A stretch of DNA of 56,939 bases from Girardia tigrina. Its lineage: Eukaryota. A program made the translations under genes and the position numbers. Under the pieces are notes generated by a model. That model made no database searches, was not told where the DNA came from, and saw nothing but the letters and a program-made list of their open reading frames with translations. The DNA lies in the NCBI GenBank assembly GCA_001938485.1, contig MQRK01230279.1, positions 86,633 through 143,571 on the forward strand, in the 5' to 3' direction. Below are positions 12,047-55,214 of the stretch, piece after piece; within the stretch, counting starts at the first letter, position 1; every line of letters begins with the position of its first letter.

Positions 12047-13598
12047 TTGTGGTTTATGGCACCCGATGAAAGGAAGTATTATTCGTTGTCAGATGTTAGA
12101 TTAATACACCAAAGGAAAATTTTCAATAGACTCAAGGTCATTAGAATATTTAAACAAAAAGTTATTTCCAAAAAATCGTTTGTTTTATCGTTTTTGATTT
12201 CATGATTTTGTTTAAGTACCGGTAATTGGGAAAAATTGCAATTAAAGCGAAGTTATTTTTCAAAGAAAGTAATTTATAAGCTAGTAGATTTTTTTGTTTT
12301 TAGCATTTATTTGTTTAATCTTTGGTCAGTTAAAAAAATCCATTAATACAAAATAAATAAAAAAGTACAAATTTTTAAAGAAAAGTTCTTGAAAATTCCT
12401 GATACTGACGAAAAATGTTTTAAACTTGGGACTTTAAAATAAATATTCATAAAGTACTGAAAAAAACAATGCCAAATCAATAAATAATAATCAAAAGTGC
12501 CACCTGGGTCAGAAAGAATTTTGAATTTAAATTTTTTCCTGTTCGCTATACATTCAAACTCGGTTATCTCGAATCGTGTGGGGCGGAAAAAAATCTAGAT
12601 AACCGAGTGTGACTGTTTATGTCGGTGGAATTTTTACCATATTCAGGTAAAATTTTCAATAATTGTAATACATTGTATATGTGTAATATTAGAGTAAATT
12701 GAAATAAATAAATTTTATTTAAAACAAAAATATGTTTCTATATGTAACAATATTCAAACAAATATTCGTTAATAAAATATTTCAATATTAAATTAATATT
12801 CGTAAAATAAATATTTCATGTATTTCCCCATCCCCATCAGACCCTTACATAATCGGACCTAAATCCATGCCAGTCTTCTAAATACTTCGGTTTGCTCCAA
12901 ATGCGAAATCGAATATCTTTTGAATGGATGAAAAAAGTAACCTACAATTAAATTTTTAATTAACCCACAATGTAGGTTAATGAAACGTGTTCGCCATCCT
13001 AAAAACACGAGAGAGAGTGATTTAAGTTTGAGGAGGTACCTAAAAACGTACGAAAGTATTTGTTTCGCGATAAAATATCAATGATTCGTTCTTGCTGAAT
13101 TCATCAGATCCGAAAAATTACAATGATCAATTTAACGATAAAATCAAAGAAATCCGTTTGCGACGATTATTATAAGAAATGTAAAAGTTGTTTCAGAAAG
13201 TCTTTGAAATTTACAAAAGTTTGAATTTGAAAATGAATCGTTTTTTTGTGTTATGAGAAATGACGACAATTGTTCAGAATAGCTCGAAAGTATATGATTG
13301 ATTGATGGCAAAATTATTTGATTATTAAAAAAAACTTTTCGACGTTCGATTTGAAGAAGATCCGAAAATCTCTCCCGATATTTACATTTTAAAATTAAAA
13401 ATTTTATCGAAAATAATCTTTTTATTTGAAATTTTGAATATTATTTTTTTTGTTTGATCAAAGCAAATTGTTTAAATGTATAAAAATTATTATTTTCGGC
13501 GCAAGTTTTTATTGAATTTAAATGATAAAGAGTCGCCATTGAATTTGTGTGGTGTAAATAAATAAAAATTTTGCAAATTCGAATTTTTTACTGGTCTT

Positions 13599-14620
13599 TT
13601 GGTTTTTCTTATCGATAAAATTTTCTTAAAAATGAAATCAGTCACTCTAAAACTTAATATTCAACAAAATTCTCAAATGCCGAGCATTGCGAGTTTGGAG
13701 AGTGAAATTCAGAAAAATATGAAAATAAAAAAGAATAAAAAAAATAACCCCACGGTCTCGAACAAGCTAATTTCCTTTCTCAAACTAATGTCGACATATG
13801 TTCAACCCGATGTCCTTCTGCTTCCATCAAAAACAGACACACCGCGATCTCATCAGAATGACTCCTTCACATCTATACCAGTCGACAACAACATCGCGGA
13901 CTTCCCCCCGGGAATCGCGGCACTCGTCAATCTCGATATGTCGGGAAACGGTATCGAGTTCGTACCAGCGATGTTCGTGGATCTGTCGAATATGAGGTCA
14001 TTGAATCTGAGGATCAATCGAATCAGAGAGATCGCATCACTGGCCGGTCTCGTTTGTCTCCAGGAATTGTTTCTAGAACTTGTCGAAATCTTTCAAATGT
14101 CATATATGAAAGAAAACGAATTTTTCGATCATTTGGTGAATCTATTCGATCTGTTTGTGATATATCATCAGTTTCTTCGATCAAAGAGAGTTTGTGTTCC
14201 TGAAACCATTTACTCAAGTATAGCAAGTGCCAAATTCGATCAAAATTATTTCCACAGAATTCTATGACTGGAAGGAGTTCTTTGAAAAGGAAATCCAAGT
14301 GCGCGGAGATAAAAAAAAGCCAGAAGCAGACAGTGGTGAATGTCGATTTTTGAGTTCCCCGCGTCCCGCAATCCACCCCCTGTAGCCAGCCCGCCGCGAC
14401 CACCTCGCTGCGCCCGCTCTGGCACCATCAGTATTAAAAGTTCGACGGAAACAAAAAAATTATTGAAAAGAAAATTTTTTCGAATTTTAGTTTTAGTTTG
14501 TTATGGAACATTTCTCGTTTGTCTTCCGTTGGTCGAGAGTTCTAGATCTTCGAATCTCAGCTGCAACAATATCGAGCACATCACATTTTAATAATTTGCA
14601 AAGAACCAAAACATGAGCCA
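13599..14620 (+). pseudogene. Degenerate leucine-rich-repeat gene fragment with upstream CpG-containing AT-rich region
   Basis: LRR consensus LVNLDMSGNGIEFVP..LSNMRSLNLRINRIREI..LVCLQELFL. Downstream, L*LEGVL*KGNP and NLSCNNIEHI are separated by stops and frameshifts. Confidence 0.65.
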
Positions 14621-15683
14621 GAATCTCCTATTCTGAGGATCTTAGGTGACAATGAATATAAATTTTTACACGATTTCTTAATAAATCTCTTTCAATAATC
14701 AATGATTGTCCTTAACAAGAATATATGACTTTGACTTTAGAGTTCTTGCCTCTCAGAATGAGTCAATGTGCATGAAGTCTTATAGATTGATTATAATTAA
14801 TATTATTATGGTTAGCCCTTAGTAAATGTTTCATATAACCACAGATAAGCGGTCCACTGTAAAGGACTTTGTGGGAAATTTTATAAATGGGTGCAGCATC
14901 AATAGTTAAGAGACGATGAACACAATTAGGTCGCAAAAATTTATTTCATTACAGGGTTTCTTTTTTGAATTCGTATTCTGATTTGTGTTCTTGAGCACTG
15001 AGCAGATGGTTGAGTTCTTGGACACTGATAAGATGAGCAGCAGATGGTTCTTTGATGTTCATTGGAACTGAGGTGACCATTCAGTAGTTGAACACAAATG
15101 GTTACCTATCCGTCAGATATATGTTTGTGTGTTCATATCTGGAGCATAGATGAGAGAGGTTTTAGTCTCAGAAAGCATACAATCAAACACTTGTTACATT
15201 CACTCTTTCAATCATATTCAATAATCATCTAATACATTGTTTGTCCATCATTAATCTTTTTTGTTATTAATTGATACATAGTGTGTTGTATGACTCAACC
15301 AAGATTAATTTAATATAACGTTGAATTACTTTTGGTTTGGATTGAGTAATAATAATAGGTATTGTAAGACCTTTCATTGGGGGATATTCCTTGTACTAAC
15401 CATAAATCTTTTCAATAAAGATTTTACAGTTTTAGTCTCAGAAAGTCAACAATGAAACCCTTATACTAATTACTCTGAACCAGATATAAGCTAACAAAAT
15501 AAGACATCGGAAGAAAAAAAGTAAAAACTGCTAACACGATTTGATATTGGCTTTTATATTGGGTCATAAGTCAAACCATCAGATATTGCTCTGATTACTG
15601 AGGTTGAACTCTCTGTCATAAATATAACAGCTCGTTAATATTGTTGACTCATGAATCTACAGTCGCTCTCATCTCTCATTCCT

Positions 15684-17480: not shown

Positions 17481-18123
17481 TTGTAATGCGGCTTTGTGTG
17501 TCAATTTTACTTATTCTCTAATTAATTTATTAATTCTATTTTAAATTGACAATACAAATTACGATTTTCGCGTTTTTACTCTCACGGCTCGACTATTCGC
17601 TATCTCCGGACATATTGTAATAGTTATCTAGTAAAAAATTAACAAATAAGTACCTTGTGTTTGTTGCATGTGCAATAAATTATAATTTTCCATATTTTTT
17701 TTTAAAATGGACTTAGACTTTTTTTTACTCTTTAAGTCTAGATGCACTGCGTATGAGGTATGTTCGATGTGCGTTTTGTTTGTAAGATAGTTAGAAATTT
17801 ATTTATTAAAATTAAGACTTCGTTATTGCAGTGACTTAGTTTTAATATCTGTTTAAATGTATTTTATGACTTTTGATTAGTTATTTATTTTTAGTATGAA
17901 AGTTATTATAAAATTCTGATACTTCACTCTTAATTACAAGAGACTGTACACATATGTGTCAAAGCTTGAGACAGCTTTTTTTCTTTGAAAAACTCGAAAC
18001 AAAATATTTTTAGAGCGTTATATCAATTATTGATATAGTCTACATCATAAATAAATCAATTGATGTAGAAATCCAATAGAAATTATATCATAATTAAGAA
18101 AAGTAAAAAAGATTAGAATCTCA

Positions 18124-19248
18124 ATGATTCCATTTCTAAACAAGGTGCAAGAATGTTTCAAGATAGTCGGTGAATTATTATTTTCCATGAACAGAGTCGA
18201 TAAAAGTTGTCAGTTGACATTCAAACATGATAATAATGAAATGAAAATGTATTTCCTCTCAAAACAATCATTTCTGATCATTCTCACGATTATTAAAAGT
18301 TACATTACAAACGTTTTTACAGAAGATAGCTTTCTTGAAGATAAACTCGATGAAATTTTAGTGAAACTTCTGGAAATTATCAAGTTCATATCAGATGATC
18401 CGCATATTGATTATAGAAAATATAAGAAATTAAAAAAACTACAAAATTCCTATGAAAAAAGTATTCAAGATTACAAACAACCGGCTGAGAATAGAACATA
18501 CTCGAGAACATATTTCAAGAATCACGTAATGAAAATCTTGAGCGATTATGCAGTAGAAATATCGAAAAATTCCGACAAAATTCTTAATCAAAATGTTTTT
18601 GAAGGCGAACCGTTCGTTCCGAACAACATATTGTCGTACATAAACGATTCTGTTTCGCTAAATATCATTAACAATAAAAGTTTCTCGAGTATCATTGAAA
18701 AATTTCTTATTTGTGAAGATTTAATTTTTGTTAATTTGACTCGATTTCGAGAAAGATTGTTTTATTTATCCGACAATGATACTCTCAGTGGGATAGACGA
18801 CAAATTAACCTTTGTGGATAATTTCGACGTATCCCAATGTCTGTCAGTAGCGAGAAATAAATCACCACAATATCTCAGACCAAACGATTATTCTCCATCA
18901 ACATTTCAGCGAGACCACACATTAATAACCATGAGTAAATCAATCACAACTGTTTTTTATCCATCATCAAAGGACGACAATCAAGAGATTCTTTGGAAAG
19001 CTTGCGATAAATGGGAAATTTTGAAACCTCAATTTTCGGAAGTTTTAGTTTCAGGTGTCAACAATGAAAGTGAAAATCGAAACGTGTTTGAAAAGTATAA
19101 AAATGACAAAGATACTCATTCTACAAATGGCATGAAGACTGATAAAATCGGTATGACAGAAGTTAATGACAAAAATGATCCATCAATTCATGAATTTAAT
19201 TGGACTAAGGAATATCCTACAATATTGAAGGAAATTACATTTCTTTAA
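18124..19248 (+). CDS. Hypothetical protein, 374 aa, no recognisable family
   Basis: Longest uninterrupted ORF in the window; AATAAA just after the stop (19254); possible 5'-UTR intron GTATGT(17758)..TTTTAG(17894). Confidence 0.6.
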   Translation: MIPFLNKVQECFKIVGELLFSMNRVDKSCQLTFKHDNNEMKMYFLSKQSFLIILTIIKSYITNVFTEDSFLEDKLDEILVKLLEIIKFISDDPHIDYRKYKKLKKLQNSYEKSIQDYKQPAENRTYSRTYFKNHVMKILSDYAVEISKNSDKILNQNVFEGEPFVPNNILSYINDSVSLNIINNKSFSSIIEKFLICEDLIFVNLTRFRERLFYLSDNDTLSGIDDKLTFVDNFDVSQCLSVARNKSPQYLRPNDYSPSTFQRDHTLITMSKSITTVFYPSSKDDNQEILWKACDKWEILKPQFSEVLVSGVNNESENRNVFEKYKNDKDTHSTNGMKTDKIGMTEVNDKNDPSIHEFNWTKEYPTILKEITFL

Positions 19249-20456: not shown

Positions 20457-20502
20457 TTAACTTTATTTTAAATGATTTAAAACATTTTATTAACCATATT
20501 TA

Positions 20503-21690: not shown

Positions 21691-21699
21691 TACATTTAT

Positions 21700-25328: not shown

Positions 25329-25799
25329 TTAATTAATGAAAGATAATCCATTGACTTGGTAGTATGATTGAAGACGCTTGATTTTTGCTCTTACAGCTTG
25401 AGGTGTTCGACGTTTAGAGAGGTAGGAATTAGTAAGCCTAGATCTCACTTCTCCAAGACCGGGACACAGACCTCGACGAAAATAATCTTCGAAAAGTTTG
25501 ATAATCATCTGAACCTCTTCAGTGTTAAAGCGACTAGAGACTGTTACAGTAGGATTAGAATTATGCAATTCCCCTGGCTGACAAGGTTTGACTAAGTAAC
25601 TGATAGTTTTGTGCTCTCGGTCAATAAATTCGTACAGACCGCTGTTCGTGGTTGCTGTGTTATGATTATAAGTCAAAAGCGAATTATTTTCTGTTCCACT
25701 GCTGCTGCTTTGAACAGCTTCTGATTCGAGTGTCATATCTCTTATTTGATTCTCATCTTGGATATCATTTATCCATTGTTGGACAAACTGCATTCTCTC
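25329..25799 (-). CDS. Terminal exon encoding a C-terminal Myb/SANT-like helix-turn-helix (probably exon 3 of the gene starting at 40100)
   Basis: ttttcag|GAG AGA ATG acceptor (phase 0), 156 codons plus TAA. Ends RFNTEEVQMIIKLFEDYF...P...VRSRL...RRTPQAVRAKIKRL. Confidence 0.7.
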   Translation of the reverse strand, partial: ERMQFVQQWINDIQDENQIRDMTLESEAVQSSSSGTENNSLLTYNHNTATTNSGLYEFIDREHKTISYLVKPCQPGELHNSNPTVTVSSRFNTEEVQMIIKLFEDYFRRGLCPGLGEVRSRLTNSYLSKRRTPQAVRAKIKRLQSYYQVNGLSFIN

Positions 25800-26592
25800 C
25801 TGAAAAGTATAAACAATATAAAACGCTTAATATTTTTTTTGCATATAATATCATCAACTGAATTATTCTAATTGTCAAAACGACTTCAGTGGCGCCAAAT
25901 GACTAATGTGTTAAGAATGAAACATATTTATCGAAGACAGAATTGACATTGTCAGGTTTTATTTAATCAAACCATTCCTTTCCAATCATAGAACTAATGA
26001 AAATAATTCTTTGACTCAATTCTTTATAGATCGAAATCAAATAATATAATCATAATAAATTACAAACTTTTTTATTAAAGATGTTTTTATATGTCAATTA
26101 ATACATAAATATAAAATTTTTGAATTAAAAAATTGAGATCTACTTAACACTAAGTAACATTATTTTTGATACATCCATGTAAACAATAGTTCTTACATTA
26201 GTAATAAAAAAGTAGTTCATATATCACTTGATCATTGGCAACATAACTAGTGATTGCTATAATCCATAACAGAATATTTATTAACCTATAATGACCTAAA
26301 AACGGCCAATGAATAACTGATTGAGGTAATAATATGTCCCTTTGGATTGAGGGTTTGTGATGATACACACACATTTACGCGTACATACGCACACACACAT
26401 ATATACTCGCACAATTGAATCTATACCAGTGCGTTTTAAATCTGTAAACCAATAAATTAATCTCTATTCCTTTTTAAATTTTGAAAAATAAAAATATTTA
26501 CTTCAAACTAAAGCTACTGAAAACTATTTTTAAAATGATTTTTTTCTTTACTTCCTACCAATGCAAACAACAATATAAACACATTTTATTAA

Positions 26593-27655: not shown

Positions 27656-27659
27656 ATTT

Positions 27660-30911: not shown

Positions 30912-31768
30912 TAATACCAACAAATACTTAACTACTCTTTGGTTTTTAGACTGTCATACAAATGGTTTCATTAGTTGAAGATATTTTTAAGTTACTATTA
31001 GAACCGCAAAATATAACTTCTACATTTCTTATCACATGAAAAATTGCGATTGATCTTTAAAAAGATAGAATAAGTCTGTAATTACAAAAATTTATCTAAG
31101 AATTTTATTTTCAAAAGAATGTTTAACAACTTTAGAGACAGGCAAATGTCTCATTATTCATAAAATGTAATCAGTACTATATGAAACTATAACAAATTAT
31201 ATATTTCGATTATCTTGCTATAAATTCGGTTACTTTGCTCTCTTATTATAACTCAACGTCGCCTTTCATACTGAAATATATAAATATTTACAAGCGGAAA
31301 TATACAAATTGTGTGCTGCTTTCAACAACGAAGAAAAAGTACTACAAGTATGTAGTCAAATACTAACAGATCTCAAGACCGAAATTCGAGGATGATTACG
31401 AACGAAGCACAGATTTTATTATATTTATAATCGTCGAAAAAATGTGTTTGAGGTTAACACATTAATACAATGAATATAATGTAATAAATCAATTGATATT
31501 ATCTACCAGTATAATTGTCAATTCCAAGTGTGGTATTTGTATTCATTTTCACAAGACTAATGTACCTATATATTTACATTATACAAATTTCTTACTAATT
31601 CCATTTTAAAAAATTCATATTAAAATGAACTACTTTTAGGTGCTTTAATTTATTATTAAATGAAAATAAAGTATTTACTTTTTGTTCGGTTTAAATAAAA
31701 AAAAGGAAAAATTTAAAAACTAAAATAACTATGTATACGATATATAAATAATAGATACTGGTTAATTT

Positions 31769-32465
31769 ATTGAATCCTGTTCGCGTTTTATTATTATGAT
31801 GATATAGCGGTAACTCTGCTCGAAATTGAAGTTCTATTGAAAAAGAAGTTTTTCCCAGTGTTATAAAGAAAATAAAGAGTTATATTAAAATAGATTTTTT
31901 TTCTTTCACCGAAATTAATCTAATAAAAGCTACAATGAATTTTGATGGCCAAATCAGTTTTGATCCGGACTTTCTGCCGTTTAATGCAACTATTAAATAC
32001 AATATGTCAAACCCGTTGGTAATATAACGATCGCAGCGTGAATATCATAATGAGACGAGCAATGAAACAAACAAATGATGAGCTTTTAGCAATCGAACAT
32101 GAAAGGAATCACCAAATCTTCGTCGAACAAACCAAACTGGTAATCGTGCGATGTGACAGCCGAATAACCATCAGCGGTGAATGTGAAACCGCCATCGTCA
32201 AGGCTCCATTGGATGATTGTGTACGACCCACCGACCCAACCTGTCGGGGCAAAACGAGAATCGTTGCGAAATCGCATCGCTAGACTGACGAGAGACGTTG
32301 GGACATCTCCTAATCGTTCCACGGAGAGACGGAGGCAAACTTTCAATTTATGAGTATGTGATATTTGTATATTTATATATTAAATATATAAATAATCCTC
32401 CCACTTTTGACGAATAGTAGGGCTGTAACACATGATAAAAGGCGCTTCCACTGTGCTACCGCGAC
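31769..32465 (-). pseudogene. Degenerate tRNA-like or SINE-head sequence split by the 31800-32430 insertion
   Basis: Rejoined minus strand GTCGCGGTAGCACAGTGGAAGCG-CCTTTTATCATAATAATAAAACGCG-AACAGGATTCAA has a Pol III A box (TAGCACAGTGG) and a stem-loop spanning the junction. Confidence 0.3.
31800..32430. mobile_element. Solo-LTR-like insertion (631 bp)
   Basis: TG...CA with imperfect inverted termini TGATATAGC / GCTGTAACA; flanks TATGA / CATGA (4 of 5). The minus-strand start TGTTACAGCCCTACT resembles that of the 20456 LTR (TGTAGTGCCCTACT). Confidence 0.55.
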
Positions 32466-32912
32466 ACTTTTTTTCATTTTGCATTTTTGATCTTCTGTTT
32501 ATTTGTTCTGTATTACAGATTGCTTATTTAAACCTCTTTTTTGTTAAACTTTTTCAATATGCTTCTTTATAACTAAAACTGTGTTCAGTGTTTATTTTTC
32601 ATTCTTACAAAACTTAAAAATCAATTTAAAAATTTCGGTTACTTTTGGTAAATAATGAAATGGAAGATAAAATATACCTTGTGAGGAAGTATCCAGTTAC
32701 ATTGAAAGTCAAATGTTGAATTAATAATATTCTGTTATATTATTTGAGGTTTTGAATTTTAAAAGCATATTATCCTAAAAATATTGTTCTTTAATGTTTT
32801 TTATAAAAACATTATAAATAAATTTTTGTGTGCTTCTATATAAAGACTCTCTGAATTATTGTGTTTTATAACAGAAAAAATACTTTGTGGTATCTTATAC
32901 ACACACAGACAC

Positions 32913-35126: not shown

Positions 35127-35164
<38 letters not shown>

Positions 35165-35166
<2 letters not shown>

Positions 35167-36478
35167 GTGTATCAAAAAAACAATACAGTGAAAAAATAAT
35201 AATAACTTGTAGTTATAATGGTGAAACACGAAGCTCTGTGAAATTTCCATGATTTTCCATACATTTTTCAAGACGGTGAATGAAACAGCGATGAACCGCT
35301 GAGTGTCACACAAATCAGGTGCTGTACGTATTTCATTAAAGGAATGATAAATGCAAGCTCGTAACTGTTCTGTGTTAACAAATGGTGAATGTGCATAAAT
35401 TTTGTTTTTTACTGCACCCCATAAGAAAATATCACACATTGACAAGTCTGCGGGCAAAGATGTCCAATTCAGAGTGAGATGAGCACCAACCAATCGATCT
35501 TCAAATTCTTGCTGCAGAAAAGCTCGTGTTTGTAAAGTAGTGTGTGCTGTTGCGCAATCTTGTTGAAACCACACTTGTTTGAATCGATTAGCACCAAACT
35601 TCTCATGCATTTCCATCGTAAGCCACAATACCAACTCTCTGTATTTTTCTGCATCAACATTAACACCATCTGGAAGAAAGTAAGGCTCAAAGAGATGCCC
35701 ACCACTGAGAGCAGCAAACACAGTCACTTTCCTGAATTGATTATTATATCGACATAATGAGATGGTGGCCGCTCGATACCCTATACAACTGCATTTCACA
35801 CTTGCATGTGGCCGTTGAGATACACACTGGCTTCATCAGATGAGAAAAAGAGAGTCGGATCAACATGACTGCCGTAAAAGAGTTCCAGAAGAGGGCCACA
35901 AGCTCTTTTACGCAGATACGGTGAGTTTCAGTTAGGTGAGGCACCACTTGCAAAACATAGGGCTTCAGCAGCAGGTCATGACGGACAATATTTTGGACAC
36001 AATGCTGACTCAAACACAAATCACGTGCAACGTGTCGAATTGATTTGCTTGTCCCAATAATCTCTCTGGCCACATTCATTATATTATTGGGTGTGCGAGC
36101 TGACCGCTTTCTTCCAAAATGTGAGCCACTATGAGAGTTACTGATACTGTTCTGGTTACTAAGGCAGTATCGGATATTAATTTTCTTCATTTGATATTGA
36201 GTGTCACATTCAATGTGGGAAATTCTTTGTTGAGAGCCTCACCAGCTTTACGATAACTTCCATGCAAATGGTAAAGGTCAATAGATCGTTTGCGCTGTTC
36301 AAGAGAGAGTTGCGGTATTGTCAAACATAACACAGCAATAATGAATTGAGTGTCTCAAATGATTATTCACACGCAAATTCACATGTCATGATGCACGATG
36401 AACAACACACGGCCACTGTATTGTTTTATAAATACAAGTTATTATTATTTTTTCACTGTTGTTTTTTTTGATACACTG
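35165..36478 (-). mobile_element. Tc1/mariner superfamily DD41D (rosa/Visitor-type) element, frameshifted
   Basis: TIRs C(C/A)GTGTATCAAAAAAACAA..CAGTGAAAAAATAATAATAACTTGTA with TA flanks. FSSDEA; WFQQD-x41-DIFLWG (41 residues counted between the last two Asp). Confidence 0.88.
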
Positions 36479-37770: not shown

Positions 37771-38303
37771 TTATTTAATGATTATTGATGTAAAGTTTAT
37801 TGTTTTATATTAACAATTAAAAAATAATTTAACGCGGGTAAATAGTGACTTCAAAAAAGATTTTTTACGAATAAAATCTTCAAACTAATATAATTATTGC
37901 ATAACACATGTTTTTTTAATAAATCGAAATTTCGGATTGATTCAAGACACTTCATTTCTCGGCATTTTTTTGCAAATGAAAAAAATTAAGCAACGAAACC
38001 CAATAGAAAAAAAATATCTGAGCATTACAAATATGTTTATTACTTTCATCATCATTACTAAAGAAAAATATTTAAAATATTTTTATTATCGATTTTAAGA
38101 AATTTATATTCAAATTTTAATTTTTTCTTAACACTTACTGAATTAACATATTCGTAGACAATTGATATTTATTATAAAAATTCTTTTTTGCTTTAAATTA
38201 TTGATAGAAAAAAACTTTTAATTATGAAACTAGTATTTTACAGTACGATAGTGGAATAAAAATATTTTGATGGAGTTCTTTTTTCATACTGTTTATGAAT
38301 GTA

Positions 38304-39430
38304 TTGGGTTGAGGAATAAGTTCCCTCCGTTTTTTGAAAAATTAAAATTTTATTTTTTAACCAAAAAGTTACTACAAATTAATCACAAATATAATCTCCG
38401 CCATTGTTCACGACTTCTTCACAACGTTCAACGAGTTTTTCAATGCCTCTTTGGTAGAAATCGCCCGGTCTTGACTCGAAGAATAAAGCCAACCAAACTT
38501 ACAGTTCTCCATTATTGAACGAAACACCACGCAAAGCGTTAGAAAGCGAACGGAAAAGATGAAAATCAGATGGAGCCAAGTCTGGTGAATACGGAGGGTG
38601 CGGTAACACTTCCCAACCAAGCGTTTGAATGGCTTCTTTTGTCAGTCTGGCAATATGAGGACGTGCATTGTCGTGTTGCAAAATAACGCCATGTTGTCGA
38701 TCCGGATGTTTTTGTCTTATAGCGGCATTGAGTCTATGCAGCTGTTGAACATAAAGTTCTGCATTCACTGTTTGGTTTCGAGGAAGCAATTCATAATGAA
38801 TAATCCCTTCCCAACCCCACCAAACGCATAGCATTGTCTTTCGTGGATGAAGATCCTGTTTTGCTCGCGGTGTCGATTGTTCTTCTCGGCTACGCCATTC
38901 TTTGCGCTGTTTCATGTTGACGTACAGGCACCATTTTTCATCGCCCGTTACAATTCGATAGTTTTTTTATCACAATCCATTTTTTCCGCCAATTCTCGAG
39001 TGGTTTGACGCGCTTCTTCGTGCAAAAGTTTGTTCAAACGCTCTTCATCGAATTTATTTGGTCGTCCTGAACGAGGTGTATCCTTGAGGTCAAAATTGCC
39101 AATTTTAAATTTTGCGAACCAATCACGAGCGGTTCTATCAGCTATAGCACCTTCTCCGTATAAAGCACAAAGCTCTCGGGCAGCGTCTGCGGCTTTGCGC
39201 CTCGATTATACGCAAACAATAGATTGTATCGGAAATGCTCATTTTTGTCGACTTGACACTCCATTTCAATGGTCTAAAAATCGACAAAAATTAATCTGAA
39301 TAAAAAAACACAATACACTATTTTTAGAGCAAAACAATAGCTTTCAAATAACATTATATCAAAAAATTTGATTTAAATATTAAATTGATTAAAAATTCAA
39401 AAAACGGCGGGAACTTATTCCTCAACCTAA
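38304..39430 (-). mobile_element. Mariner (DD34D) element with internal deletion
   Basis: TIRs TTGGGTTGAGGAATAAGTTCCC / GGGAACTTATTCCTCAACCTAA with TA TSD; HDNARPH...HPPYSPDLAPSDFHLF. Confidence 0.93.
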
Positions 39431-39792
39431 TATTAAAATATTTAATTAAATGTGTATTTTATTATTATAATATTTAAATAAAGCCCTATTAGAAAGCAAA
39501 ACACCGGTAAATCAATTGATCATTTAGCTAATGTTTTTAAAGCATTTATTATGCTAATATAAAGGGTGATTTTTCTTTTCGTAAGTCAGGGGTCACAAAG
39601 GGATACTTTTAATGTGTTTTAAATTTAAAAAATAGAATCAATTTATTCAATAACATTTCCATAGAGAAGTGTTATTAATCTTTAAATTTAAATTCAACTC
39701 TGGTCGATTAACAAAGAAAATTCAAAATTAAATTTAAAGTTTTAAAATTCACATATTTTCAAATTAATTAACAAAGAAACAAGTAAATTTAC

Positions 39793-39897: not shown

Positions 39898-39944
39898 CTG
39901 TAAACGACACATCATTATAAGAAAATCCATTGAAATCGAAATAC

Positions 39945-41929: not shown

Positions 41930-42910
41930 TATATTTAAGGAGAAAATTTATATTTATGATTTATTTATATAAAAAAGAGAAAGTAAGAAGATAACAAAAC
42001 AAAGAACTGTAATTGAACAGAAATTTTTTATAAATTAAGGAATTTAAAAGAAGAAAAAATATAAGGTAAAGTAAAAAAACGCGTTAACATGTAAAAAATT
42101 ATTTTTCAATTTATTCTTATGTGTTTACTTTGAACTATACCTACTCTACCGCACTGTTATGAATATTTGGGGTTTGTCCTTCTAATTATGCTAGCAATCA
42201 TGTAAGTAAGGAAGTTATGCTCACAGTTCCTGCTTTAATTTGTCAACATGAGAATGCATGAGAAGTGATTTCAGTACTATCTAGAGAACCTCAACATTTA
42301 TGGTGAAATTCAGGTTCGATTCCTGGATAATATAATGACAGAGGACGAAACATCCCTTGATATCGACAGCTGCCGGACTTCTATCCACCAATCAAGAATT
42401 ATGGCCATGGGGCGGACCGTACGAATCCGGAACATCATCCCATTTTTGTTTGGACGTATGGGAACAAATTCAATCTCAAAACTTCAATGAACATAGTAAG
42501 TTAAGTTTTTATTCACTGATTTTCTTTTTTCGATTATTATAAACACCCTAACTTTTCAATATATACTGCTATTAGTCGTTGTTACTCTCCAAAATGCCCA
42601 TCTTCCAAGATCCTTTTTTTCATTCAGGACCCATAATAATTCTAACACTTTTAATGAAACTGTTTATTTTCTCCATTTTTTCTACCTTTCCACAAGATTG
42701 CAACTTTCTGTCTCCAACGTCTCCAGAAATATCCGAATTAATTCTTTGAAGGTTCTAGATCCCAAAGCACTTTAATCTTGAGGTTTTTGGCTAATTTGAC
42801 AGATCAGTCTCAAATTCAGCATCCATACCACCTGACATATTACAGTGTTCTTCCTCTTTATTTCTTTATCTTTTTAGTGTTCATTAAATCGCATCAGCAG
42901 TAGCAACCAA

Positions 42911-43937
42911 TTAAGAGTTTTTTTAAGTGATATGTAATTTAATTTTTTGATTTTTAATTTTGAAAAAAATTCTTAATTGGATTTGCGACCCCTGAAATTT
43001 TTAAAACTGAAAAATTCAGATGCGCATTAAAAAAATTTTAAAACAATAAAAATTTTTTTGAATGATAAAAAAACATTACCGTGAAACATTGGATTTTCGT
43101 TTCCCAATAATTTTTAATGTATAAAAAAACAATTAACAGTAATTTGTAAATTTATAAATTTGTTTTATTAAATCAATGAAGTTAATAAAATTTTAATTGA
43201 AAAAATTAATTGAAAATTTTAATTTTCAATTCTAATGGGTGAAAATTATTCGACTAATGATAAATCGAACGCGAATATCCGTCAAAATAACGGAAATTCG
43301 TTGATCAATTTCTCTTCGGAAAGTTCGCATGTCAATAGCGGCGCATATACGAGCGTTTTTCATCCCTCATCGATCGCCGCTGTCAACAGATCGAATCAAA
43401 ATGATTTGACCGGCTGTTTAAATGACACATTTGCGCGGGGATTGAATGTGAATCCCGGATCATTCGCGATGGCTAAAAATCAGCGACCAAGAGAGAAAGA
43501 TTTACCGATCTTGAATAATGAGGAACTCATGAATTATCGGTATATGACTGAAGGGAATCCCTTCCAGGCGGCACGGAACATATCCATGTCTCCTAACTCT
43601 GTTTTGTCGAGTCAGTTCAAACACCAGAATTACTCACAGGGACACGCACATGGTCCTAGACACGCGGCACATGGATTACTGATGAAGCCACCTCTCCAAC
43701 AGCAGCAAGCACGACAATCCGTTGCCGTTTTGTCACAAATGACCGAACCACGATCTTCCATCGTCTGGATCACGGTGCGTGCGAGTGTGGTGGCGACCCT
43801 TCGAAAGTACGAACGTCACTAAAATATGGTAAGCCTTATCGATCGGCGAGCGAATTGTGCCGTGTCGCATTTTAGTGCGTGACCACTCGTTTCGTTCCAC
43901 AAGATCCACGGGACACATCTCGGGCAAGACAAATATG
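42911..43937 (+). pseudogene. Inserted gene 5'-end cassette: AT-rich leader, 195-aa ORF (43235-43822) and a degenerate RRM
   Basis: Interrupts the BEL integrase, flanks ACCAA / AACAA. N/S/Q-rich ORF, then SSIVWIT..LRKY.NVTKI..IDRRANCAV..FS..KIHGTHLG, which is RRM-like (SPEN/RBM15 style) with indels. Confidence 0.6.
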
Positions 43938-45101
43938 AACAACAACAATATTCCTCTGTTATTTTCACAGTCTTTAACATGTATCCTAACACTTTCTTCA
44001 TCAGTTTTACTATAACCTCGTAAAAAATTAAAATGCGGGGTTCGAGTAAATTTGAATACCCTCTTGATTCTCGAGTAAGCACCAGAACAATCTTCCTTGT
44101 AATTTTTCTCAACTATATCTTTTACTACTTTGATTGAAGTCAAAACAATTTGTCCCATTTTCGGAAACTATGAAGTTTGGTTTTCACCTTCTTCCGATCA
44201 TTAGCTCAAACTCTTACCAGAAGGTATCCGTTTCTAAACATTGAGCTACCTCTATATGAACCGATATGGATTGTAGACAACTGAACATACACACGTTTTT
44301 TTATCTCTCATTTTTCCTCTTCCTACATTGATGTATATTGGTTCGACTTAATCCTTCGCTACATTTATGAATGGTCTGCTCGACTCCACAACACCGAAAC
44401 TCGACAGATGCGCCATAATCTGGCTCCAAGTTTTTGCTGATTTTCTTTGACAGTATACACACTAATTCATGCATCGTTTTTTTGACAATCCGGAGACATT
44501 TGATAAAGAATAAGCAGTTGAAGCTAGGTTATCCAATTATCCATATGTAGGATAATCGGATAGCGTATATCTTAATATAAGAACTCTGCATTTAACAAAC
44601 GACTATTGGTGTGTTTTAACCCAAGCTCGTCAATTTTTGGATTACTGATTTCCATCCAAAATTTGGTGCATTCATATTTGGTCATATCTAAACTTTTCTG
44701 CTTCACTATCTAGAATTTCCTCTTTTAACAAATTGTCTTCTTTCTTATTTAGATTTTCTCTTTGATAATTATCGAATAATTGCTAATTATATTTAGCTTT
44801 AAACCTCCACGCCTATTCTTGAACTCTTGCTAACATTGAACAAATCAAAAAGTTCTCAAGGTTAAATCGATCATTTCTATTATACTCTTCTGTTTATTGT
44901 GTCTCAATTAGTTACACCTGAGGAAAGATGATTTCCTTTTGAGGATGATTTCGTTCTACCTCTCATTTCCATCTCAGTCATTCTTCATCAAATAGATATA
45001 TTGGGTTCTGGATCAAAAGAAGATATTATTAACGCAAAACTTTATTTCTATAACAATTTAAGTTTTTTTTAAACAAATATTTTCAGGAACTTTCGTACTT
45101 T

Positions 45102-45859: not shown

Positions 45860-48791
45860 CTTTCTTTTCACACAAACCATTATAAATAAAAATAGATATA
45901 AATATAGATATAGAAATTATTATTTCATTTATTAAAAATTATATTTTTTACTCGCCTTTTGTTAAAATTTATACATTATAAATTTTGTCACAAAGATTTA
46001 AATTTCCCATTATATTTTACATTTTAAATTAATCGTTTCGCCATTACATTTCGATACAATCACATTTTCCAAAAACAAAATTAAAATCGCATTTTAATTT
46101 ACTTCGATTTAATTGTGTACAATAAAAGTTACAAAAAATAGTTTAGTTTATTTTCATTTCGCAAATAAAATATTAAACTTTATATTCCTTTTTATTTTAT
46201 TTCAATTAAATATTTCCATCAAAATTAAAATTAACTTTATTACTTTATAATAAATCTTTTAATAAATCTACCATAAAATTTATTTTATTTTTTACAAAAA
46301 TTAATTTTTACATTAAATTCGGAAAATCTGATTTTAACATATCTACAACACTATTTTACGAAATGTAATTGTTTAATTATTAATTTGATCAGATTGTAAA
46401 TTCAAAAATTTTATGAAGTCAACGATGCTCCTAACAAGATATATTATATGTCAACCCGAAAGCCATTCTACCAAAGAATTGTTGTCGTAGATTGCTATGC
46501 CTCTGGATAATAATCATCTGAATTCAACTTTTACACCACATGTCTCCATTGATTTGTGTGTGTCAATTCGTGGATCTTACTGGCAATATTCGTTATAAAT
46601 GATTTCAATTTATTTCAATTGTTATTAAACCAATTTGACACACCTTGGCTGTCCAATAATAAACTTTTTATTTTTAAACTGGGAGTTCGTTCAGCACTCT
46701 CTATGGTAATTGAGCTTTGATAAAGCCACCATTAATTCCAATCTATGGAAGCTAACAACTTTCTTGTTTTCATCTTTAACTTCGCCATTACTAATTTTTC
46801 TTGATATCTTCCCCTACTCGCTCTCTTAGGTAGATTACTGATCCGAAGAATTTTGCCGAAGCGTCTGTAAAATGATGTATTTGTTAATCATTGTTGTCTT
46901 GTTTCATTAAACTTTTTGTATTCTAATTTTGTTCACTGTTTCCGAGAATATTTCATCTTTTACAGCACCATCAATACATATTTCGTGGATAAGCACTTTA
47001 GCTCTAATAACGAATGAATATATCAGTCCCAATGGTTCAAATACTTTGGTCTTTGTACATAAAAAATCACATCTTGTAATCTCCATCTTTTCATCAACCG
47101 TCATACCAATGACAAATTGGTCATCTGCCATATTCAAACAAATCCTTAACGTTTTCATGGGCAACTTATCTTTATCCTCTAAATCCAATTATCTTTTAAT
47201 ATTAGACAACCGTATTCAGGTGGTCATGAAAATTTCTTGTCTTTTTGCTAAATTTTCGTTTAATTTGATCGCCATCGGGTCGGTTTGGTACCGAATTCAA
47301 GCTGTCATTCATATATACAGATTTCAATATAGTTTCCACTGCTCTCGAATGTTATTTTAATTATTTTCTGGCACCTTCCTGTGACACAGATTGTGCTAAG
47401 AATGGTAAGAGTTTAACCTGAATATTATTGTTCCATTACGTAGAACTGCGCTACTCATTGTCTCATCATAGAATACTTAGACATTTGGAATTTTATGGCT
47501 TCATCTTTATCTGCAAGTACATTTCAGCTATATCACTCCTTAGTATAATTCGGTACTAGCGAAATCTCAGTAACAAATACACAGTATCAATTTTATAATT
47601 TTGGACCACTCTCTAGCTGATCCTTTAGATTTGCTCCTCGGACATTTGCTGCTGCTTTGAATACCATGCGAACTTTATTAGCTTTCTTATCATACCGGAT
47701 AACTGAAAAATTAGAGACCCAACACCTTGTCTCTGTTTTTCTACTCTTCATCATCATAATATGATATTTCCTTTCGTAATTCTTTTGGTTTTTCTTCTTG
47801 CCCTCAACCCACAAAAACTACACCAACAGAGAAATCAAATCAAGCCAAACCAACAAGCAAAGAAAAAAAATCCAAAACTAAAGCAATGAACATTCTTCAA
47901 TTGTTAATAATCAACTTTGAGAAATTTATTTAAATGTGAAAAAGACAATTACAGCACAAAGAAATTGTTAAAAGGGTTAGCGATATGTAAATAATCAAGA
48001 TGTCGAGCTACTCAACTGAGTTTCATCAAATTGTCTTTAATAAATATCTCTGTCTGACAAAGAAGTTGTCAGAATTCTTTGCCTTTAGACTAACAGAACA
48101 AAACTTTATATTGCCGAGAAGAAAAATAATAGTGTTGCTTAATAGCTAAAACAATTTCTTCCCGTAGTTTACTGAAGGAAATGAATTTATGTTTTTTAGC
48201 AATATCATTACTAAATGTAATCATATATACTTTTTTGACTGTAATTTATTCATATGCAGTTTCGTAAGCGACGTCTTGGTTGGTTGTAGCTGTTTCTGAC
48301 ACCTGCTTAAAATGGACAGGGTCGGACTCGTTCCGAATCAAGGTGCAACCCGATCGGTGGGCAACTCCATTCGGTTCCTAACTCCAGGTGATAATTGAAA
48401 TTGTTTCCCCGCGACCGCCTCAAATGATGTGATTATTGCCGGAATCTGGTGTCGGGCAGTTACGTGTCTGTTTTGTCGATCTGTGTTTAGTGACTGTTGA
48501 CACCTTCCCGTGAAAAGTGGTGGAAAAGAAAACTGCATATTAATTTTCACCTACTTAAACCCTGTCGGTACTTGTATTTTATGAAAACATGGACTTTCGG
48601 AATCCTACATGAGTCCAAGCTCTCTTAGTTCAGACGAATTATCGATATATAAACAAAATAAGAAGTCACCAGCAAGCATGAATGGCTCATAATTTTGTTA
48701 TTTACAGATAAAAATTCCAAAATTATTACCATTTTTTTGAATATTAAAACCAGTTTTAAAATTTGGATTTTTTAATTAATTTTTAATGCTA

Positions 48792-50681: not shown

Positions 50682-52131
50682 TTAGGCTGGTCAAAAAATA
50701 ATGGCGGTTTTGGGACACAAACTTCAAAGACGTGCAAATTCACAGAAACAAAAGTTTATTAATCAAAGTATGAACCGTTGGCATCAATACATTTTTGCCA
50801 ATGAGAAACAAGTTGTTTTATTCCATCAGCATAAAATGCATCGGTTCTCGAAGCGATGAATTCTTGGAAGGAATTTTAAGCATCATTTTGGTTTTTGAAA
50901 ATTTTTTCACGTAAGAAGTTGTACAAATGCCTGAAAAAGTAGAAGTCCGTTGGCGAGAGATCTGGTGAATATGGTGGATGAAGCAGGGTTTCATAGCCCA
51001 ACTCATTAAGCTTTTGAAGAGTCACTTTTAAAATATGAGGTCTAGCGTTATCATGAAGAAGGATGGGACTTTTTCGATTGACCAATCCCGGACAAAGGGT
51101 TTTCAATTTNTTATGCATTTCATCAATTTCATGACAGTACCTCTCCGCTTTGATTGTTTCACCTGGATTCAAGAAACTATAGTGGATGATTCCAGCATCA
51201 CACCACCAAACTGTCACCATAACCTTACGGGGTCTTAGTTTCGGTTTTGGAAAGTTTTTCGGTACTTCATCTTTGTCCAACCACTGTGCAGATCGACGTC
51301 GGTTATCATACATGATACATTTCTCATCACAGGTAACAATACGATCAAGAAATGGATCGTTTTTATTGCGAAGATGATTGGGAGAACAAATTTCATAGCG
51401 TCGGTTCTTTTGATTTTCATTCAAATCATGTGGAACCCATTTATCAAGTTTCTTGATTTTTCCAAGTTGTTTTAAATGATCCAGGAATGTTGAATGACTA
51501 ATGCCCAACCCATCTGCAAGTTCTCTGATTGTTGTACGGGGATCTGTTTCCACTATTGTCCTCAAATTGTCATTGTTCACAGCAACTGGACGACCACGAC
51601 CTTCTTCATCTTCAAGGTTTTCATCTCCATCAGAAAATTTTCGGAACCATCGTTGCATTGTGCGTTCAGAAGCTGTTCCCTTACCAAACGCTTTATTGAT
51701 ATTGCGAGCCGTTCCCTGCTGCTTTACGACCCAGTTTAAATTCGTACAAGAAAATTGCTCGAATTTTAATTTTTTTCCATTATTAATTTAGCACCGTAAA
51801 TATTCTAAAAAATAACAGCAATATGTTAATAATGNNNNNNNNNNNNNNNNNNNNNNNNNNNNNNNNNNNNNNNNNNNNNNNNNNCTTTACGACCCAGTTT
51901 AAATTCGTACAAGAAAATTGCTCGAATTTTAATTTTTTTCCATTATTAATTTAGCACCGTAAATATTCTAAAAAATAACAGCAATATGTTAATAATGGCT
52001 ATATGAGTATACAGCTAGGCATAAGATTTCAAATAATATCTAACACTAATGCATTTAAACTTATATACATATCAAAGTAGATAAACAAAGTTTAAAGCTC
52101 AAAAACCGCCATTATTTTTCGACCAACCTGA
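50682..52131 (-). mobile_element. Mariner (DD34D, Mos1/Hsmar-like) nested in Zator
   Basis: TIRs TTAGGCTGGTCAAAAAATAATGGCGGTTTT / AAAACCGCCATTATTTTTCGACCAACCTGA with TA TSD; WVPHDL, VTCDEK, HDNARPH, YSPDLSPTDF. Contains an assembly gap. Confidence 0.94.
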
Positions 52132-52681
52132 TATGTAGGAGGATCTATTGGATACTAAAATGATATAATAGTATAAACTTAAATAATAAGTAGTAAATAA
52201 AAATATAAATTAGGATTACCAATATATCATCAATGTCAGTGTTGTGTTTCTTGTTGCCCAACAACAATCTGAAACGACCTAAATCATCAGTCGGTAATAT
52301 AAAAAGCCAATTCCCAAATCAAAAGCAAATTCAAGTCGTCTGCAATTCATTTATAGGGATGTAGGATTCTTATCGCCAAAAACCTTCAGAAACAGTAATT
52401 CATGATCGTGTTGAACAATTGTGGGGAAGTAAAACCTTAAATTCGTGTCTTGAAAATATGATGAAATTTACAACGGTTATTTTCGAAAAAAACATATAAT
52501 TTAATTTATTAATTAATTTTGTTAAAAAACAATTTGTTTAAATATTTTACTTTTTAAATGATTTCAAAAACCTTTCACTTCATGTTTTAAAATTGTACAA
52601 AAATGTGACTTTTAACAATTCTCAAAATAAAATAAAAATTTAATTTTTTCATTTACAGAAATTATTATTATTTACAGAATT

Positions 52682-55214
52682 ATGGACAAGAAATCATTGT
52701 ATGAAAAACTCTTCGAGGTATATAAGCGAGCTTATCCTACTATTTCCAAGCAACAAAATCAGCAAAAATGCAACGAATACTGGAATTCAATCAAAGCAAG
52801 TGTAGTGACCAAAAATTCCCCTAATTCGAAATCGGAATAAATTTGGTGATTTTAGTTCCGATACTTTATGAATTATCAATAAAAAAAATGGAAGAAGCTA
52901 ATCTTCTTTAAATAGTGGACGATTTGAGTTCGCATGATTCTTAATTAAAAAAATAAATCAACAACATTACAAAAAATATTATGTAAATAAAATGTGATTT
53001 TTAAAATTAAAGTTAAAAATTTATTTGGCATTGTAACTCAGAGAAAACATATTGTAAATTTTTATTAATCGAGTTTGTTTAAATATACTTTATGAAATGG
53101 CAAACTTGCATATTTTTGATTCGTTATAGTTTTATTTTCAATCTTGTCGTAAGAAAACCGATATGTCAGATAAATATGCTTCGTTTATCGGTACATGGGT
53201 GAACGTGAAATGCAAATCGTTCGTTTGTAATGGCACAATTGAAACAGTCCATGAAAATTGAATTTTATTATCGAATGCAGAAAATAGCGATTCTCAAATC
53301 ACATCGAAACACAAGGGAATCGAAAAATCAATAATTAATTCCGAATCGATCGACTCGAAACCGACAGTGGTAAATGTGTTTGCACCGGAGACACAGCCGC
53401 CAGTGATCAGGCGAGGCGGATCGAATTCGGTTATCGACAGAAACAATCGGAGAATTTCGATCGAATTCAATCCGTTGTCACGCGCGGTGGATAATTACAA
53501 TTCGAGGGAATGTCGATGCTCGAGGTGCAGAAACCAACTTTCCGACAAGACCCTCACAACTCCCTGTGGTGTCAATGCAGGTGGAGTCTCATGCACCTCC
53601 GCCACACACCACATTATATTAGCAAGAAATGATTTTCATGTCCTCTATGAATCGAAAATGAACGAACTTTCCAAGTCGAAAGGAAAAGGTTCATTGATGT
53701 CGTTCTTTACATCCAGTGCTAGTAAAGAAACCAGTTTGCCTTCAACAAGCAATTCTCGATCAAAATATATTTCTACGACTGAGTCTACATCTTCAACACA
53801 AGAATCGTCTAATACTATTCCAATTACTAATTTTCTAGAATATCCCAAACAAAACGCCATCAGTCAACAACTTTCAATTGTAAAAGCCGACATTGCTGGA
53901 TATTCACTTAGAGATAATGCTGATTTATTAACTTTTTATGATCAAGTCAAGTTTAAATCTCTCAAAATGAAGCTAAAGGAATTATTATTAGAAAAGGAAC
54001 TAAAAAATGCTCAGGACAACCAGAAACGACAAAAGGAATTTCGAGCTCAAAGAAAAAGCTTGAATGATGACATTTTAACAGAGCATCCAGAAATTGCTTC
54101 AAAAATGCTGATTCGTTCTAGAAAGGGAAGACCTGATATTACGGATAAGCAGCTTGAACTGCTCACCACAATCATAAAATAGCTACTTTAGGTACAGCAG
54201 CTGATGAAAAACGTCAATGTGAAATTTTAAACTATCAAGACTTTAAGTGAGCTTACTGATGCCTTGAGACAAAAAGGTTTTGAAATTGGTAAATCAACGG
54301 TGCATTATCATCTTCAACCAAGAAACTCTCGTTCTATTGATGGTAAAAAACATGTCAATACAGTTCCAGCTCGCTTAATCAAGGCATTGCGAGATAATCA
54401 TAAAAATCACCCGGATTCTGTTTTTTGCACAGCTACTTAAAATAATCTCCGTGAGATTGCATCATTTTTAGGTCCTGAGGAAGTAGCGATCATTAGTCAA
54501 GACGATAAGGCAAAAGTACCGATTGGTTTACCTGCAGCTAATTGTCAAGCGTCGTTGTTGATGAACATGGAATATCGAGTCACACTTCCTGATCATGATT
54601 GGGTTATTGCTCAATAACACTATTTGATACCTTCAGTTTATGCTGCATTAACGATTGATAACAACCGTTTTGGTGATCCAAATGCAGTTCAATATTCTGG
54701 TCCTACATACATCGCTGTAAAATCAGGAAAGCATTCTCATTCGACCGCATATTCGCATGCTAAAGATTTTGAACGTTTATATAATGTTGATCAGTTCAAA
54801 CGATTTCTTTTCGGTGAAAATAATTTATCAAAACCTGTAATGATAATTTTAGTTGATGGTGGTTCAGATGAAAATCCGCGTTATCAAAAAGTAATTGAAA
54901 CAGCTTTACATCATTTCATTGAACGTAGTCTTGATGTGATCTTCATATCTACTAATGCTCCCCATCGCAGTGCATTCAATCCAGTAGAACGTCGAATGGC
55001 TCCTCTTTCAAAACAACTGTCAGGACTCATTCTTCCACATGATAATTATGGTACCCATTTTGACTCAAATGGAAAAACTATAAATAATGATTTAGAATAC
55101 AAGAATTTTAAATTAGCTGGAGAAGCATTATGCGAAGTTTTCTCAAATATCATCATTGATTCTTACGAAACCGTTGTTGAATTTATTGATTGCGATAGCT
55201 CCGAGTTGGAATAA
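52682..55214 (+). pseudogene. Zator transposase pseudogene
   Basis: MDKKSLYEKLF..WNSIKA|RNDF rejoins in frame after removing the 52801-53626 insert. SQDDKAKVPIG..EYRVTLPDHDW, LIPSVYA, VDGGSDENPR, APHRSAFNPVERRMAPLS; several frameshifts and stops. Confidence 0.88.
52801..53621 (+). mobile_element. 821-bp inserted cassette with 5-bp TSD carrying an LSm-fold-like gene start
   Basis: GCAAG at 52796-52800 and 53622-53626; starts TGTAGTG. ATG at 53163 gives MSDKYASFIGTWVNVKCKSFVCNGTIETVHEN*ILLSNAEN...IINSESIDS. Confidence 0.75.

Follow-up and report, generated by a model that had tools for sequence, protein, structure and literature searches.

Host gene 5' ends inside the long terminal repeats of two retrotransposon superfamilies in Girardia tigrina, and a possible route of their capture

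The stretch of DNA analysed here, referred to as the window, comprises 56,939 nucleotides of Girardia tigrina (assembly GCA_001938485.1, contig MQRK01230279.1, positions 86,633 to 143,571 of the forward strand). It consists throughout of nested transposon remains, and the genome to which it belongs (1.43 Gb in 255,254 contigs) is AT-rich without depletion of CpG. Four segments of the window, cassettes A to D, had been described in a first-pass annotation as gene starts with a common layout: an AT-rich leader, an ATG, a CpG-richer coding-like part, and an end without poly(A). This layout is confirmed for all four. Poly(A) is absent from each, and in cassettes A, B, and C a leader with a GC content of 0.19-0.25 precedes a GC- and CpG-richer part with a GC content of 0.43-0.46. 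Cassettes A, B, and C are solo long terminal repeats (LTRs) of LTR retrotransposons, an identification that we regard as close to certain, and cassette D is probably one too. The LTRs of these families carry spliced 5' pieces of host genes.

The identification of A, B, and C follows from fixed TG ends, 5-bp duplications, and sister copies that lie beside primer sites and gag-pol. Each segment has fixed ends common to tens to hundreds of copies. Exact matches to the LTR ends were counted genome-wide (551 for the 3' 21-mer of A, 520 for the 5' end of B, and 33 for the 3' end of C; control patterns, 0), which establishes the common termini that the first-pass annotation had left open. Its borders were right for C, and those of A, B, and D are shifted to the positions in Table 1. 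The 5-bp duplications reported at three segments are real and in fact flank all four, with one mismatch at B; the pair originally named for B is a chance repeat inside the element. Among 22 delimited A copies the duplication was exact in 13, had one mismatch in three, and was missing in one, and in five a primer site stood in its place; thus, 16/17 solo A copies carry an exact or one-mismatch duplication. For B, 20 loci were considered and five were dropped as truncated, short, or duplicate, and all 15 distinct copies with both ends showed the duplication (10 exact, five with one mismatch). A separate B tally, in which the duplication itself defined the ends, was circular and was not used. Cassette C was matched across the same 821 bases in most of 43 rows (the best 40 of 296 candidates were scored). 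Of 22 delimited C-type copies, 15 had an exact and two a one-mismatch duplication (17/17 solo copies), three were followed by a primer site, and two were preceded by a polypurine tract. The constant 5-bp length agrees with the earlier suggestion of an integrase-type insertion.

Sister copies connect the cassettes to complete elements. In 39 A copies a primer site follows the LTR, and the order in sister copies is LTR, primer site, ubiquitin, and then gag, protease, reverse transcriptase, RNase H, and integrase. The A-family Gag corresponds to DUF1759 (Pfam E 8.5e-5), and the open reading frames (ORFs) of copies L185, L191, and L195 are presumably BEL pol, judging by their motifs; domains and motifs are the basis of the BEL/Pao assignment of A. 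A 3' LTR of this family, with polypurine tract and integrase before it, was not identified among the A copies. Sisters of B lie either after a polypurine tract and integrase (L264) or before a primer site and Gypsy genes, and the Gag of B matches that of C (E 9e-24). A primer site stands beside the C LTR in four copies, and a polypurine tract and integrase precede the C copies L004 and L088. Inside C elements, Gag (DUF7041), protease, reverse transcriptase, RNase H, and integrase follow the primer site in the Gypsy order (Pfam on L083). B and C were assigned to Ty3/Gypsy by gene order and domains. The C LTRs end in TATATTA instead of CA, in the window and in the 33 exact copies, yet have clean 5-bp duplications.

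Three delimited D copies have TG...CA ends and a duplication that is exact in two and has one mismatch in the third. No primer site or internal region was found in sister copies of D, a search limited by divergence, and none of 16 D frames matched a host gene at E<0.1. Copies L062-L078, at 75-85% identity, retain traces of one ATG-initiated frame (window 31936-32280) without a family match. The first-pass annotation had further held that two segments interrupt transposon coding sequence. Cassette B does lie in a BEL integrase and C in a DDE-like frame, and both are ordinary nesting, the coding sequence being an incidental landing place. The right flank of B is BEL integrase on the minus strand (tblastx E 4e-8), the agreement of the left flank with the domain downstream was judged only by eye, and Pfam support for the ORF split by C is E 0.02 only. 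The finding of primer sites and gag-pol led to the rejection of hammerhead, Helitron, Penelope, and miniature inverted-repeat readings. Among the 25 longest inverted pairs of the window, none formed long arms at segment ends. The pieces also do not resemble retrocopies made by long interspersed nuclear elements, as they are 5'-anchored, lack poly(A), and have a constant duplication of 5 bp, nor Pack-MULEs, as long terminal inverted repeats were not seen and introns are missing.

Table 1. Positions of the cassettes, their parts, and other features within the window.
Feature	Position	Strand	Remarks
Cassette A	13061..14430	+	Solo LTR, BEL/Pao family, TG...CA; GTATT at 13056-13060 and 14431-14435
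A, leader and ATG (13632) module	13430..13713	+	Common to LTR variants running on into the BIG1/Sec7 piece
A, in-frame module(s)	13714..13880	+	No parent found
A, captured part of exon 1, host LRR gene	13881..14076	+	G000:C231107:51068-51272, 88%; stops exactly at the exon's splice donor
A, captured piece of second host gene	14077..14290	+	G000:C242878, 92%; 11 nt of one exon and the next exon; GT-AG intron of ~50 nt missing
A, LTR 3' tail	14291..14430	+	Last ~80 nt family-wide
Cassette B	42873..43947	+	Solo LTR, Ty3/Gypsy family, copies TG...CA; ATCTT/ATATT; inside BEL/Pao integrase on minus strand
B, captured leader (~150 nt in host) and exon 1	43067..43499	+	Native ATG 43235; G000:C217938:17810-18232, 84%
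B, captured exon 2, same gene	43500..43745	+	G000:C217938:21090-21337, 95%; stops exactly at the exon-2 donor
B, family tail	43746..43947	+	Common to many variants; in 5' LTR copies the tail frame continues through the primer site
Cassette C	52801..53621	+	Solo LTR, Ty3/Gypsy family, TG...TTA (non-canonical 3' end); GCAAG/GCAAG; inside DDE-like ORF
C, 153-codon frame, ATG to LTR end	53163..53621	+	Stop at codon 33 in the window copy
Cassette D	31683..32466	+	Older LTR-like repeat, TG...CA; CTTTT/CTTTT; decayed ATG frame
Exon-like frame	11786..12088	-	Presumably resembles the start of a FIG4/SAC phosphatase; no Pfam support
Mariner/Tc1 and Tc5-type remains	50876..51787 (minus); 38302..39432; 35175..36469; 2318..3174		Two with terminal inverted repeats
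Integrase core	56061..56612	-	Pfam rve E 5e-11
BEL-like pol fragment	46907..47188	-	
Tandem repeat	1742..1996		85-bp unit, three copies
Two related AT-rich arrays	9754..9869; 11303..11671		22-bp unit
Open frame	18094..19248	+	384 codons, no Pfam match
Open frame	25329..25826	-	165 codons, no Pfam match

Within each LTR family the ends are constant and the middles differ between copies, consisting of host gene pieces in sense orientation. A Pfam scan of 88 sense frames, taken from LTRs and some flanks, recovered 14 host families inside LTRs: AP-complex small chain, MAP65/PRC1, sideroflexin, Ras (Rab), UBE2 conjugase, leucine-rich repeat (LRR), A20 zinc finger, DCB (BIG1/Sec7), HSP70, RRM, peptidase M1 N-terminal, BTB, AAA_5 (midasin), and claudin. 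Matches to SPT5, Snf7, and a viral fusion protein were left out of this count because they probably lie in flanks. Weaker matches were to a dynamin-family GTPase, a short-chain dehydrogenase, and a mitochondrial carrier. At a finer level, we take some pieces to be Rab24, UBE2G2, HSD17B12, KATNAL2, EDC3, XPF, mitofusin, and LRRC47. Antisense frames of delimited LTRs gave one doubtful match among 101, the sense and antisense sets having been built differently. The LRR similarity first noticed in A is confirmed. The RRM-like character claimed for B has no Pfam support in the window copy, and sister B LTRs do carry a true RRM. Four side observations concern the LTRs and their surroundings. Copies L087 and L231 are C-family LTRs with identical ends and different middle frames. 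The sideroflexin-bearing A LTRs L126, L128, L138, and L147 exceed 2 kb, with ~1.3 kb ahead of the ATG without assignment. An N-terminal myelin proteolipid/M6 piece (L092:2361-2816, plus strand; Pfam E 4e-8) adjoins an A LTR on the opposite strand. A viral fusion glycoprotein match (L308:942-1400, plus strand; E 8e-11) lies upstream of an A LTR end and is possibly an env-like gene.

The captured pieces derive from spliced RNA, a conclusion in which we have very high confidence, because introns are missing relative to four parents (sideroflexin, the B parent, the second A parent, and AP-3 sigma), including the parents of A and B. A 2.86-kb GT-AG intron of the B parent is exactly absent from cassette B, AP-3 sigma pieces join three exons and retain 43 nt of leader, and sideroflexin exons are joined without introns in 26/26 copies examined. 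A leader of 40-150 nt is kept for three parents, often with the native start codon; in sideroflexin the best-kept copies are similar from ~70-90 nt ahead of the ATG onward, and decayed ones from ~10 nt ahead of it. A family search for sideroflexin returned 128 matches, of which five lie on one multi-exon parent, three are C-terminal and elsewhere, and the other 120 stay within profile positions 1-275 of 319, never reaching the C-terminal 44. The midasin piece corresponds to residues 294-389 of 4910 and the BIG1/Sec7 piece to residues 93-213 of 1937; thus, the 5' bias also holds in very long genes. Inner mosaic pieces lack a start of their own, which fits a scheme in which the front of an older capture is replaced by a newer one, and HSP70-type and PRC1-type pieces extend to mid-protein. 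The earlier claim that host gene 5' ends have been captured repeatedly in this genome is correct. In cassette A, the piece of the second gene follows the LRR piece in frame. Parents were not found for the leader module of A or the modules that follow it, and DNA searches for UBE2G2, KLHL, BIG1, and Rab parents (best 40 candidates scored) returned LTR copies only.

The front of the C frame likely comes from an EDC3-like host gene of the LSm type. The LSm likeness noted earlier is weak (Atlas 0.81), Pfam matched neither LSm nor any other family in the frame, and parent exons of the front part were not located. Longer related pieces in other LTRs contain what we take to be an FDF-like motif of EDC3, and these longer copies, and only these, match one intron-bounded exon (L361) at 74%. 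A homolog search with the C frame had no matches, which is weak evidence, and an FDF family search of the genome gave no signal anywhere, controls included. PDB sequence searches with the C frame, the EDC3-like linker, and the KATNAL2-like piece were blank; the EDC3-like and KATNAL2-like names are therefore drawn from motifs and are tentative. Two candidate parents were rejected: L279 is a truncated LTR copy, and L287/L316 terminates in an LTR tail. The EDC3-like piece (window 53163-53470; L293, L316/L342, L359, and L360) is found both in the C LTRs of Gypsy elements and in LTRs whose tails are of the BEL type, either through capture of one gene twice or through exchange from superfamily to superfamily.

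In 5' LTR copies the LTR frames mostly run on toward Gag. The ATG within the C LTR opens 153 codons to the LTR end, and the frame continues through the primer site. From the LTR end of the A family, the frame crosses the primer site and a linker, enters a ubiquitin whose LRLRGG terminus is intact, and continues into Gag. The end of this ubiquitin is in frame with the LTR end in 11/17 rows, seven of which are stop-free, and one natural frame of 860 residues joins LTR end, ubiquitin (Pfam E 4e-27), and DUF1759. Of the captured pieces, 14/18 run on to the family tail peptide without a stop, in a natural frame, in one copy or more; at one in three, the chance of this would be P 1e-4 for independent pieces, but the pieces are not independent. 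Gypsy families that have short LTRs and the same primer site served as a control. Their frame closes within ~5-35 codons after it, and read-through past the primer site is therefore not general. One BEL element (L185; G000:C236717:22500-32499, minus strand) has two tandem ubiquitins before Gag and a full pol, which suggests that a polyubiquitin mRNA was the source.

Families B and C share a conserved stretch of 80 residues ahead of Gag, which terminates in Gly-Gly in several copies; in some spacer copies Gly-Gly is lost. Comparison of this Gypsy spacer with ubiquitin clusters gave an Atlas score of 0.93, with 180 features in common. When its profile was searched against 1.8 billion proteins, there were five hits, which included an OASL-like ubiquitin domain (E 3e-9), a multi-ubiquitin protein (E 8e-4), and an unnamed Gag that has this domain at its front (E 2e-8), as well as one repeat protein that is unrelated. 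Pfam gave E 0.01-0.03 only, and hhalign against the BEL ubiquitin gave a probability of 2%. Homolog searches with the Gypsy spacer and the BEL Gag region had no matches, which is weak evidence. Judged from sequence, the A spacer is a true ubiquitin and the B and C spacer is a predicted ubiquitin-like domain with Gly-Gly at its end. Host deubiquitinases likely cut the spacer, which would free Gag, and the elements likely borrow host translation starts.

The junctions of the captured pieces bear on the route of capture. In three of the five cases with a located parent (LRR exon 1, B parent exon 2, and AP-3 sigma exon 3), the junction lies exactly on a splice donor, and at these three the LTR continuation differs from the parent's next exon. 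In the LRR case, the sequence downstream of the junction has a pyrimidine-rich AG before it in the parent from which it came. The 5' junctions sit in A or T runs, and the LRR piece begins in mid-exon. Junctions between modules commonly show 3-7 nt of apparent microhomology, with 6-7 nt at the KLHL and Rab-module junctions. Pieces are present in both 5' and 3' LTR copies.

The full explanation, which we consider reasonably probable, is that the spliced host 5' pieces in these LTRs, mostly in frame with spacer and Gag, were gained by splice-in and are followed by a spacer that is cleaved. In such a scheme, the donor of a host exon would be joined by splicing to a cryptic acceptor that a sense-oriented element carries in its 5' LTR, and the product would consist of host leader, exons, LTR tail, primer site, and gag-pol. 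Minus-strand strong-stop DNA would then extend into the host leader and jump to the 3' LTR at short A/T runs, so that the piece would be copied into both new LTRs. Later switches at microhomology, together with new captures, would replace the front and give rise to the nested mosaics that the junction pattern displays. Splice-in would thus account for many primary captures and template switching for later shuffling. As the first AUG would now be the host's, variants in frame with Gag may have spread, and the ubiquitin or ubiquitin-like spacer would make Gag indifferent to the upstream fusion. LTR-LTR recombination leaves solo LTRs, and in these families the resulting solo LTRs would resemble gene starts flanked by a 5-bp duplication. 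More tentatively, and at somewhat less than even chances, two unrelated superfamilies may have converged on an exchangeable leader, an LTR exon trap for the starts of highly expressed genes combined with a cleavable spacer, which would provide renewable host-like 5' ends and scatter hundreds to thousands of gene-start copies. If true, these 5' ends would serve translation and perhaps evade or redirect small-RNA silencing.

Other routes of capture have to be weighed against splice-in. The first-pass annotation had proposed that a DNA-level process, through integrase or repair, copies gene starts, a proposal considered here with promoters included. The 5-bp duplications and AT-rich leaders are real, and the LRR piece, taken alone, lies within one exon; however, four parents show exact loss of introns, similarity ends 40-150 nt ahead of the ATG, the segments terminate as LTRs do and are linked to primer sites and polypurine tracts, and the pieces correspond to spliced mRNA inside solo LTRs, all of which makes the proposal hardly credible. 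Origin from spliced mRNA was among the outcomes that the annotation itself had named as refuting, and for the four parents with intron loss the proposal is refuted. That the mosaics arose as chimeras when short reads were assembled into fragmented contigs is also very improbable. The assembly is indeed highly fragmented, with many contigs breaking ~100 nt from the common A end, but identical mosaics recur in tens of diverged copies at different sites with their own matching 5-bp duplications, and genomic assembly cannot take out introns. Template switching of reverse transcriptase onto a co-packaged host mRNA during strong-stop synthesis, without splicing into the LTR, could in principle explain every capture, and is a somewhat unlikely alternative. 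It is a mechanism described in the available text of Tan et al. 2016 (PMC5131818), and it accommodates the microhomology at many junctions, the mid-exon 5' end of the LRR piece, and the lack of an element in the examined parts of parent introns. Three of five 3' ends exactly on donors (approximately P 0.001 at 5% each) are not predicted by switching on mature mRNA, and the pyrimidine-AG acceptor on the LTR side of one junction also argues for splicing. Several observations nevertheless weigh against splice-in. Parents are located for five 3' junctions only, and an acceptor AG is visible at one of the three exon-end junctions, no older variant having been found for the other two. The sideroflexin piece ends 12 nt inside an exon, at a 6-nt microhomology between sideroflexin and BIG1, and the piece of the second A parent ends inside a long ORF, before a GT. 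No LTR remnant was found in the examined parts of four parent loci, which makes a cis version of splice-in a little weaker.

The role of the captured frames is likewise debatable. The pieces could be passengers upstream of the true Gag start, their frames kept by chance or to avoid nonsense-mediated decay and the ubiquitin serving stability, budding, or as a decoy, which we consider unlikely. Here, a ubiquitin fold ending in Gly-Gly directly before Gag in two unrelated superfamilies speaks against mere passengers, as does the early closure of the frame in the short-LTR Gypsy families. On the other side, clear selection within families was not seen: ratios of nonsynonymous to synonymous polymorphism (pN/pS) were 0.5-1.5, like those of shifted-frame controls, and stops are weakly depleted. 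The A linker has its own Met codons, and Gag may therefore not need the host AUG. Four of the 18 pieces (the window A subfamily, whose LRR frame does not reach the Gag frame, and the KLHL, claudin, and KATNAL2-like pieces) lack an in-frame tail. In the Gypsy families, the C frame is in phase with Gag in 2/4 distinct 5' copies, and in B two copies with overlapping peptides provide the link from primer site to Gag. Modelling of the Gypsy spacer fold gave a poor result (pLDDT, a per-residue confidence score, of 50), and its best Foldseek match has E 0.06, although nearly all top matches are ubiquitin folds.

LTRs are usually seen as non-coding promoter and terminator units, and the known gene capture by LTR elements takes place between the LTRs and ends autonomy. 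Here, capture takes place inside the LTR with gag-pol kept, shows a bias toward gene starts, and is accompanied by a protein linker acquired separately by two superfamilies. A testable route of exon shuffling follows, in which a solo LTR brings a leader, an AUG, and an open frame into its landing site, as C does. Host housekeeping mRNAs may become targets of transposon-derived small RNAs. In such genomes gene-family counts are inflated and annotation is confused, as with ~120 sideroflexin fragments for one gene.

In the literature searched, with most subscription journals and Repbase outside its scope, no account was found of LTRs that hold host 5' ends and are followed by a ubiquitin spacer ahead of Gag. 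Coding sequence within an LTR has precedents: the gag of Ty1 starts inside the LTR and reads through the primer site, and the sag gene of mouse mammary tumor virus lies in the LTR. Unlike the exchangeable host-derived module described here, these are each one fixed ORF of the element. Ubiquitin insertions in polyproteins of the pestivirus bovine viral diarrhea virus are cleaved by host hydrolases. As far as the available text of PMC13517609 goes, these insertions likewise consist of ubiquitin captured from the cell, present once or twice and placed immediately ahead of a protein whose N-terminus must be free; in the RNA virus, however, they are sporadic and self-limiting, whereas here the domain is fixed in whole families and its Gypsy version is a diverged ubiquitin-like one. 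The accessible part of Arkhipova and Yushenova 2019 (PMC6431247) places captures by LTR elements after pol, between the LTRs, or inside ORF1 after Gag. Burro and giant Gypsy elements are similar in being invertebrate LTR elements with host-like domains, including a Ubi2/SUMO-like motif in the Burro polyprotein, and that part does not describe variable host 5' ends inside the LTR ahead of Gag. Pack-MULEs, in the portions of PMC6431247 and PMC13317346 at hand, are also mobile mosaics of host gene pieces, but they are DNA transposons with terminal inverted repeats, in contrast to the LTR termini, 5-bp duplications, primer sites, and intron loss seen here; the same portion of PMC13317346 cites one template switch from a transposable element to an LTR.

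Two further systems, again as far as the available texts show, resemble parts of the proposed scheme. LTR-mediated retroposition in animals (Tan et al. 2016, PMC5131818) also joins spliced partial host mRNA to LTR-element sequence, with multi-gene chimeras, 3' truncation exceeding 5' truncation, and secondary amplification. Its junctions show microsimilarity, which is present at several junctions here, three others being exon ends. In that system the spliced pieces lie between the LTRs, where they replace internal ORFs and yield a non-autonomous product. Here, the piece lies inside the LTR upstream of the primer site, sister copies keep gag-pol, the frame is mostly in phase with Gag, three of the five 3' ends with a located parent coincide with exon ends, and the piece is followed by a ubiquitin spacer. 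In the exon trapping of SVA_F1 and pt_SVA_D6 (Damert 2018, PMC6139936), host first exons are spliced to an acceptor of the element and then amplified as a subfamily. Capture there is deduced from coincidence with the exon 3' end, which holds here for three of five junctions, and earlier captures can provide the next acceptor. However, SVA is a non-coding, non-LTR element copied by L1 that arose from one or two founders, whereas the elements described here would require strand transfer into the LTR, are apparently translated ahead of Gag, and involve at least 18 pieces.

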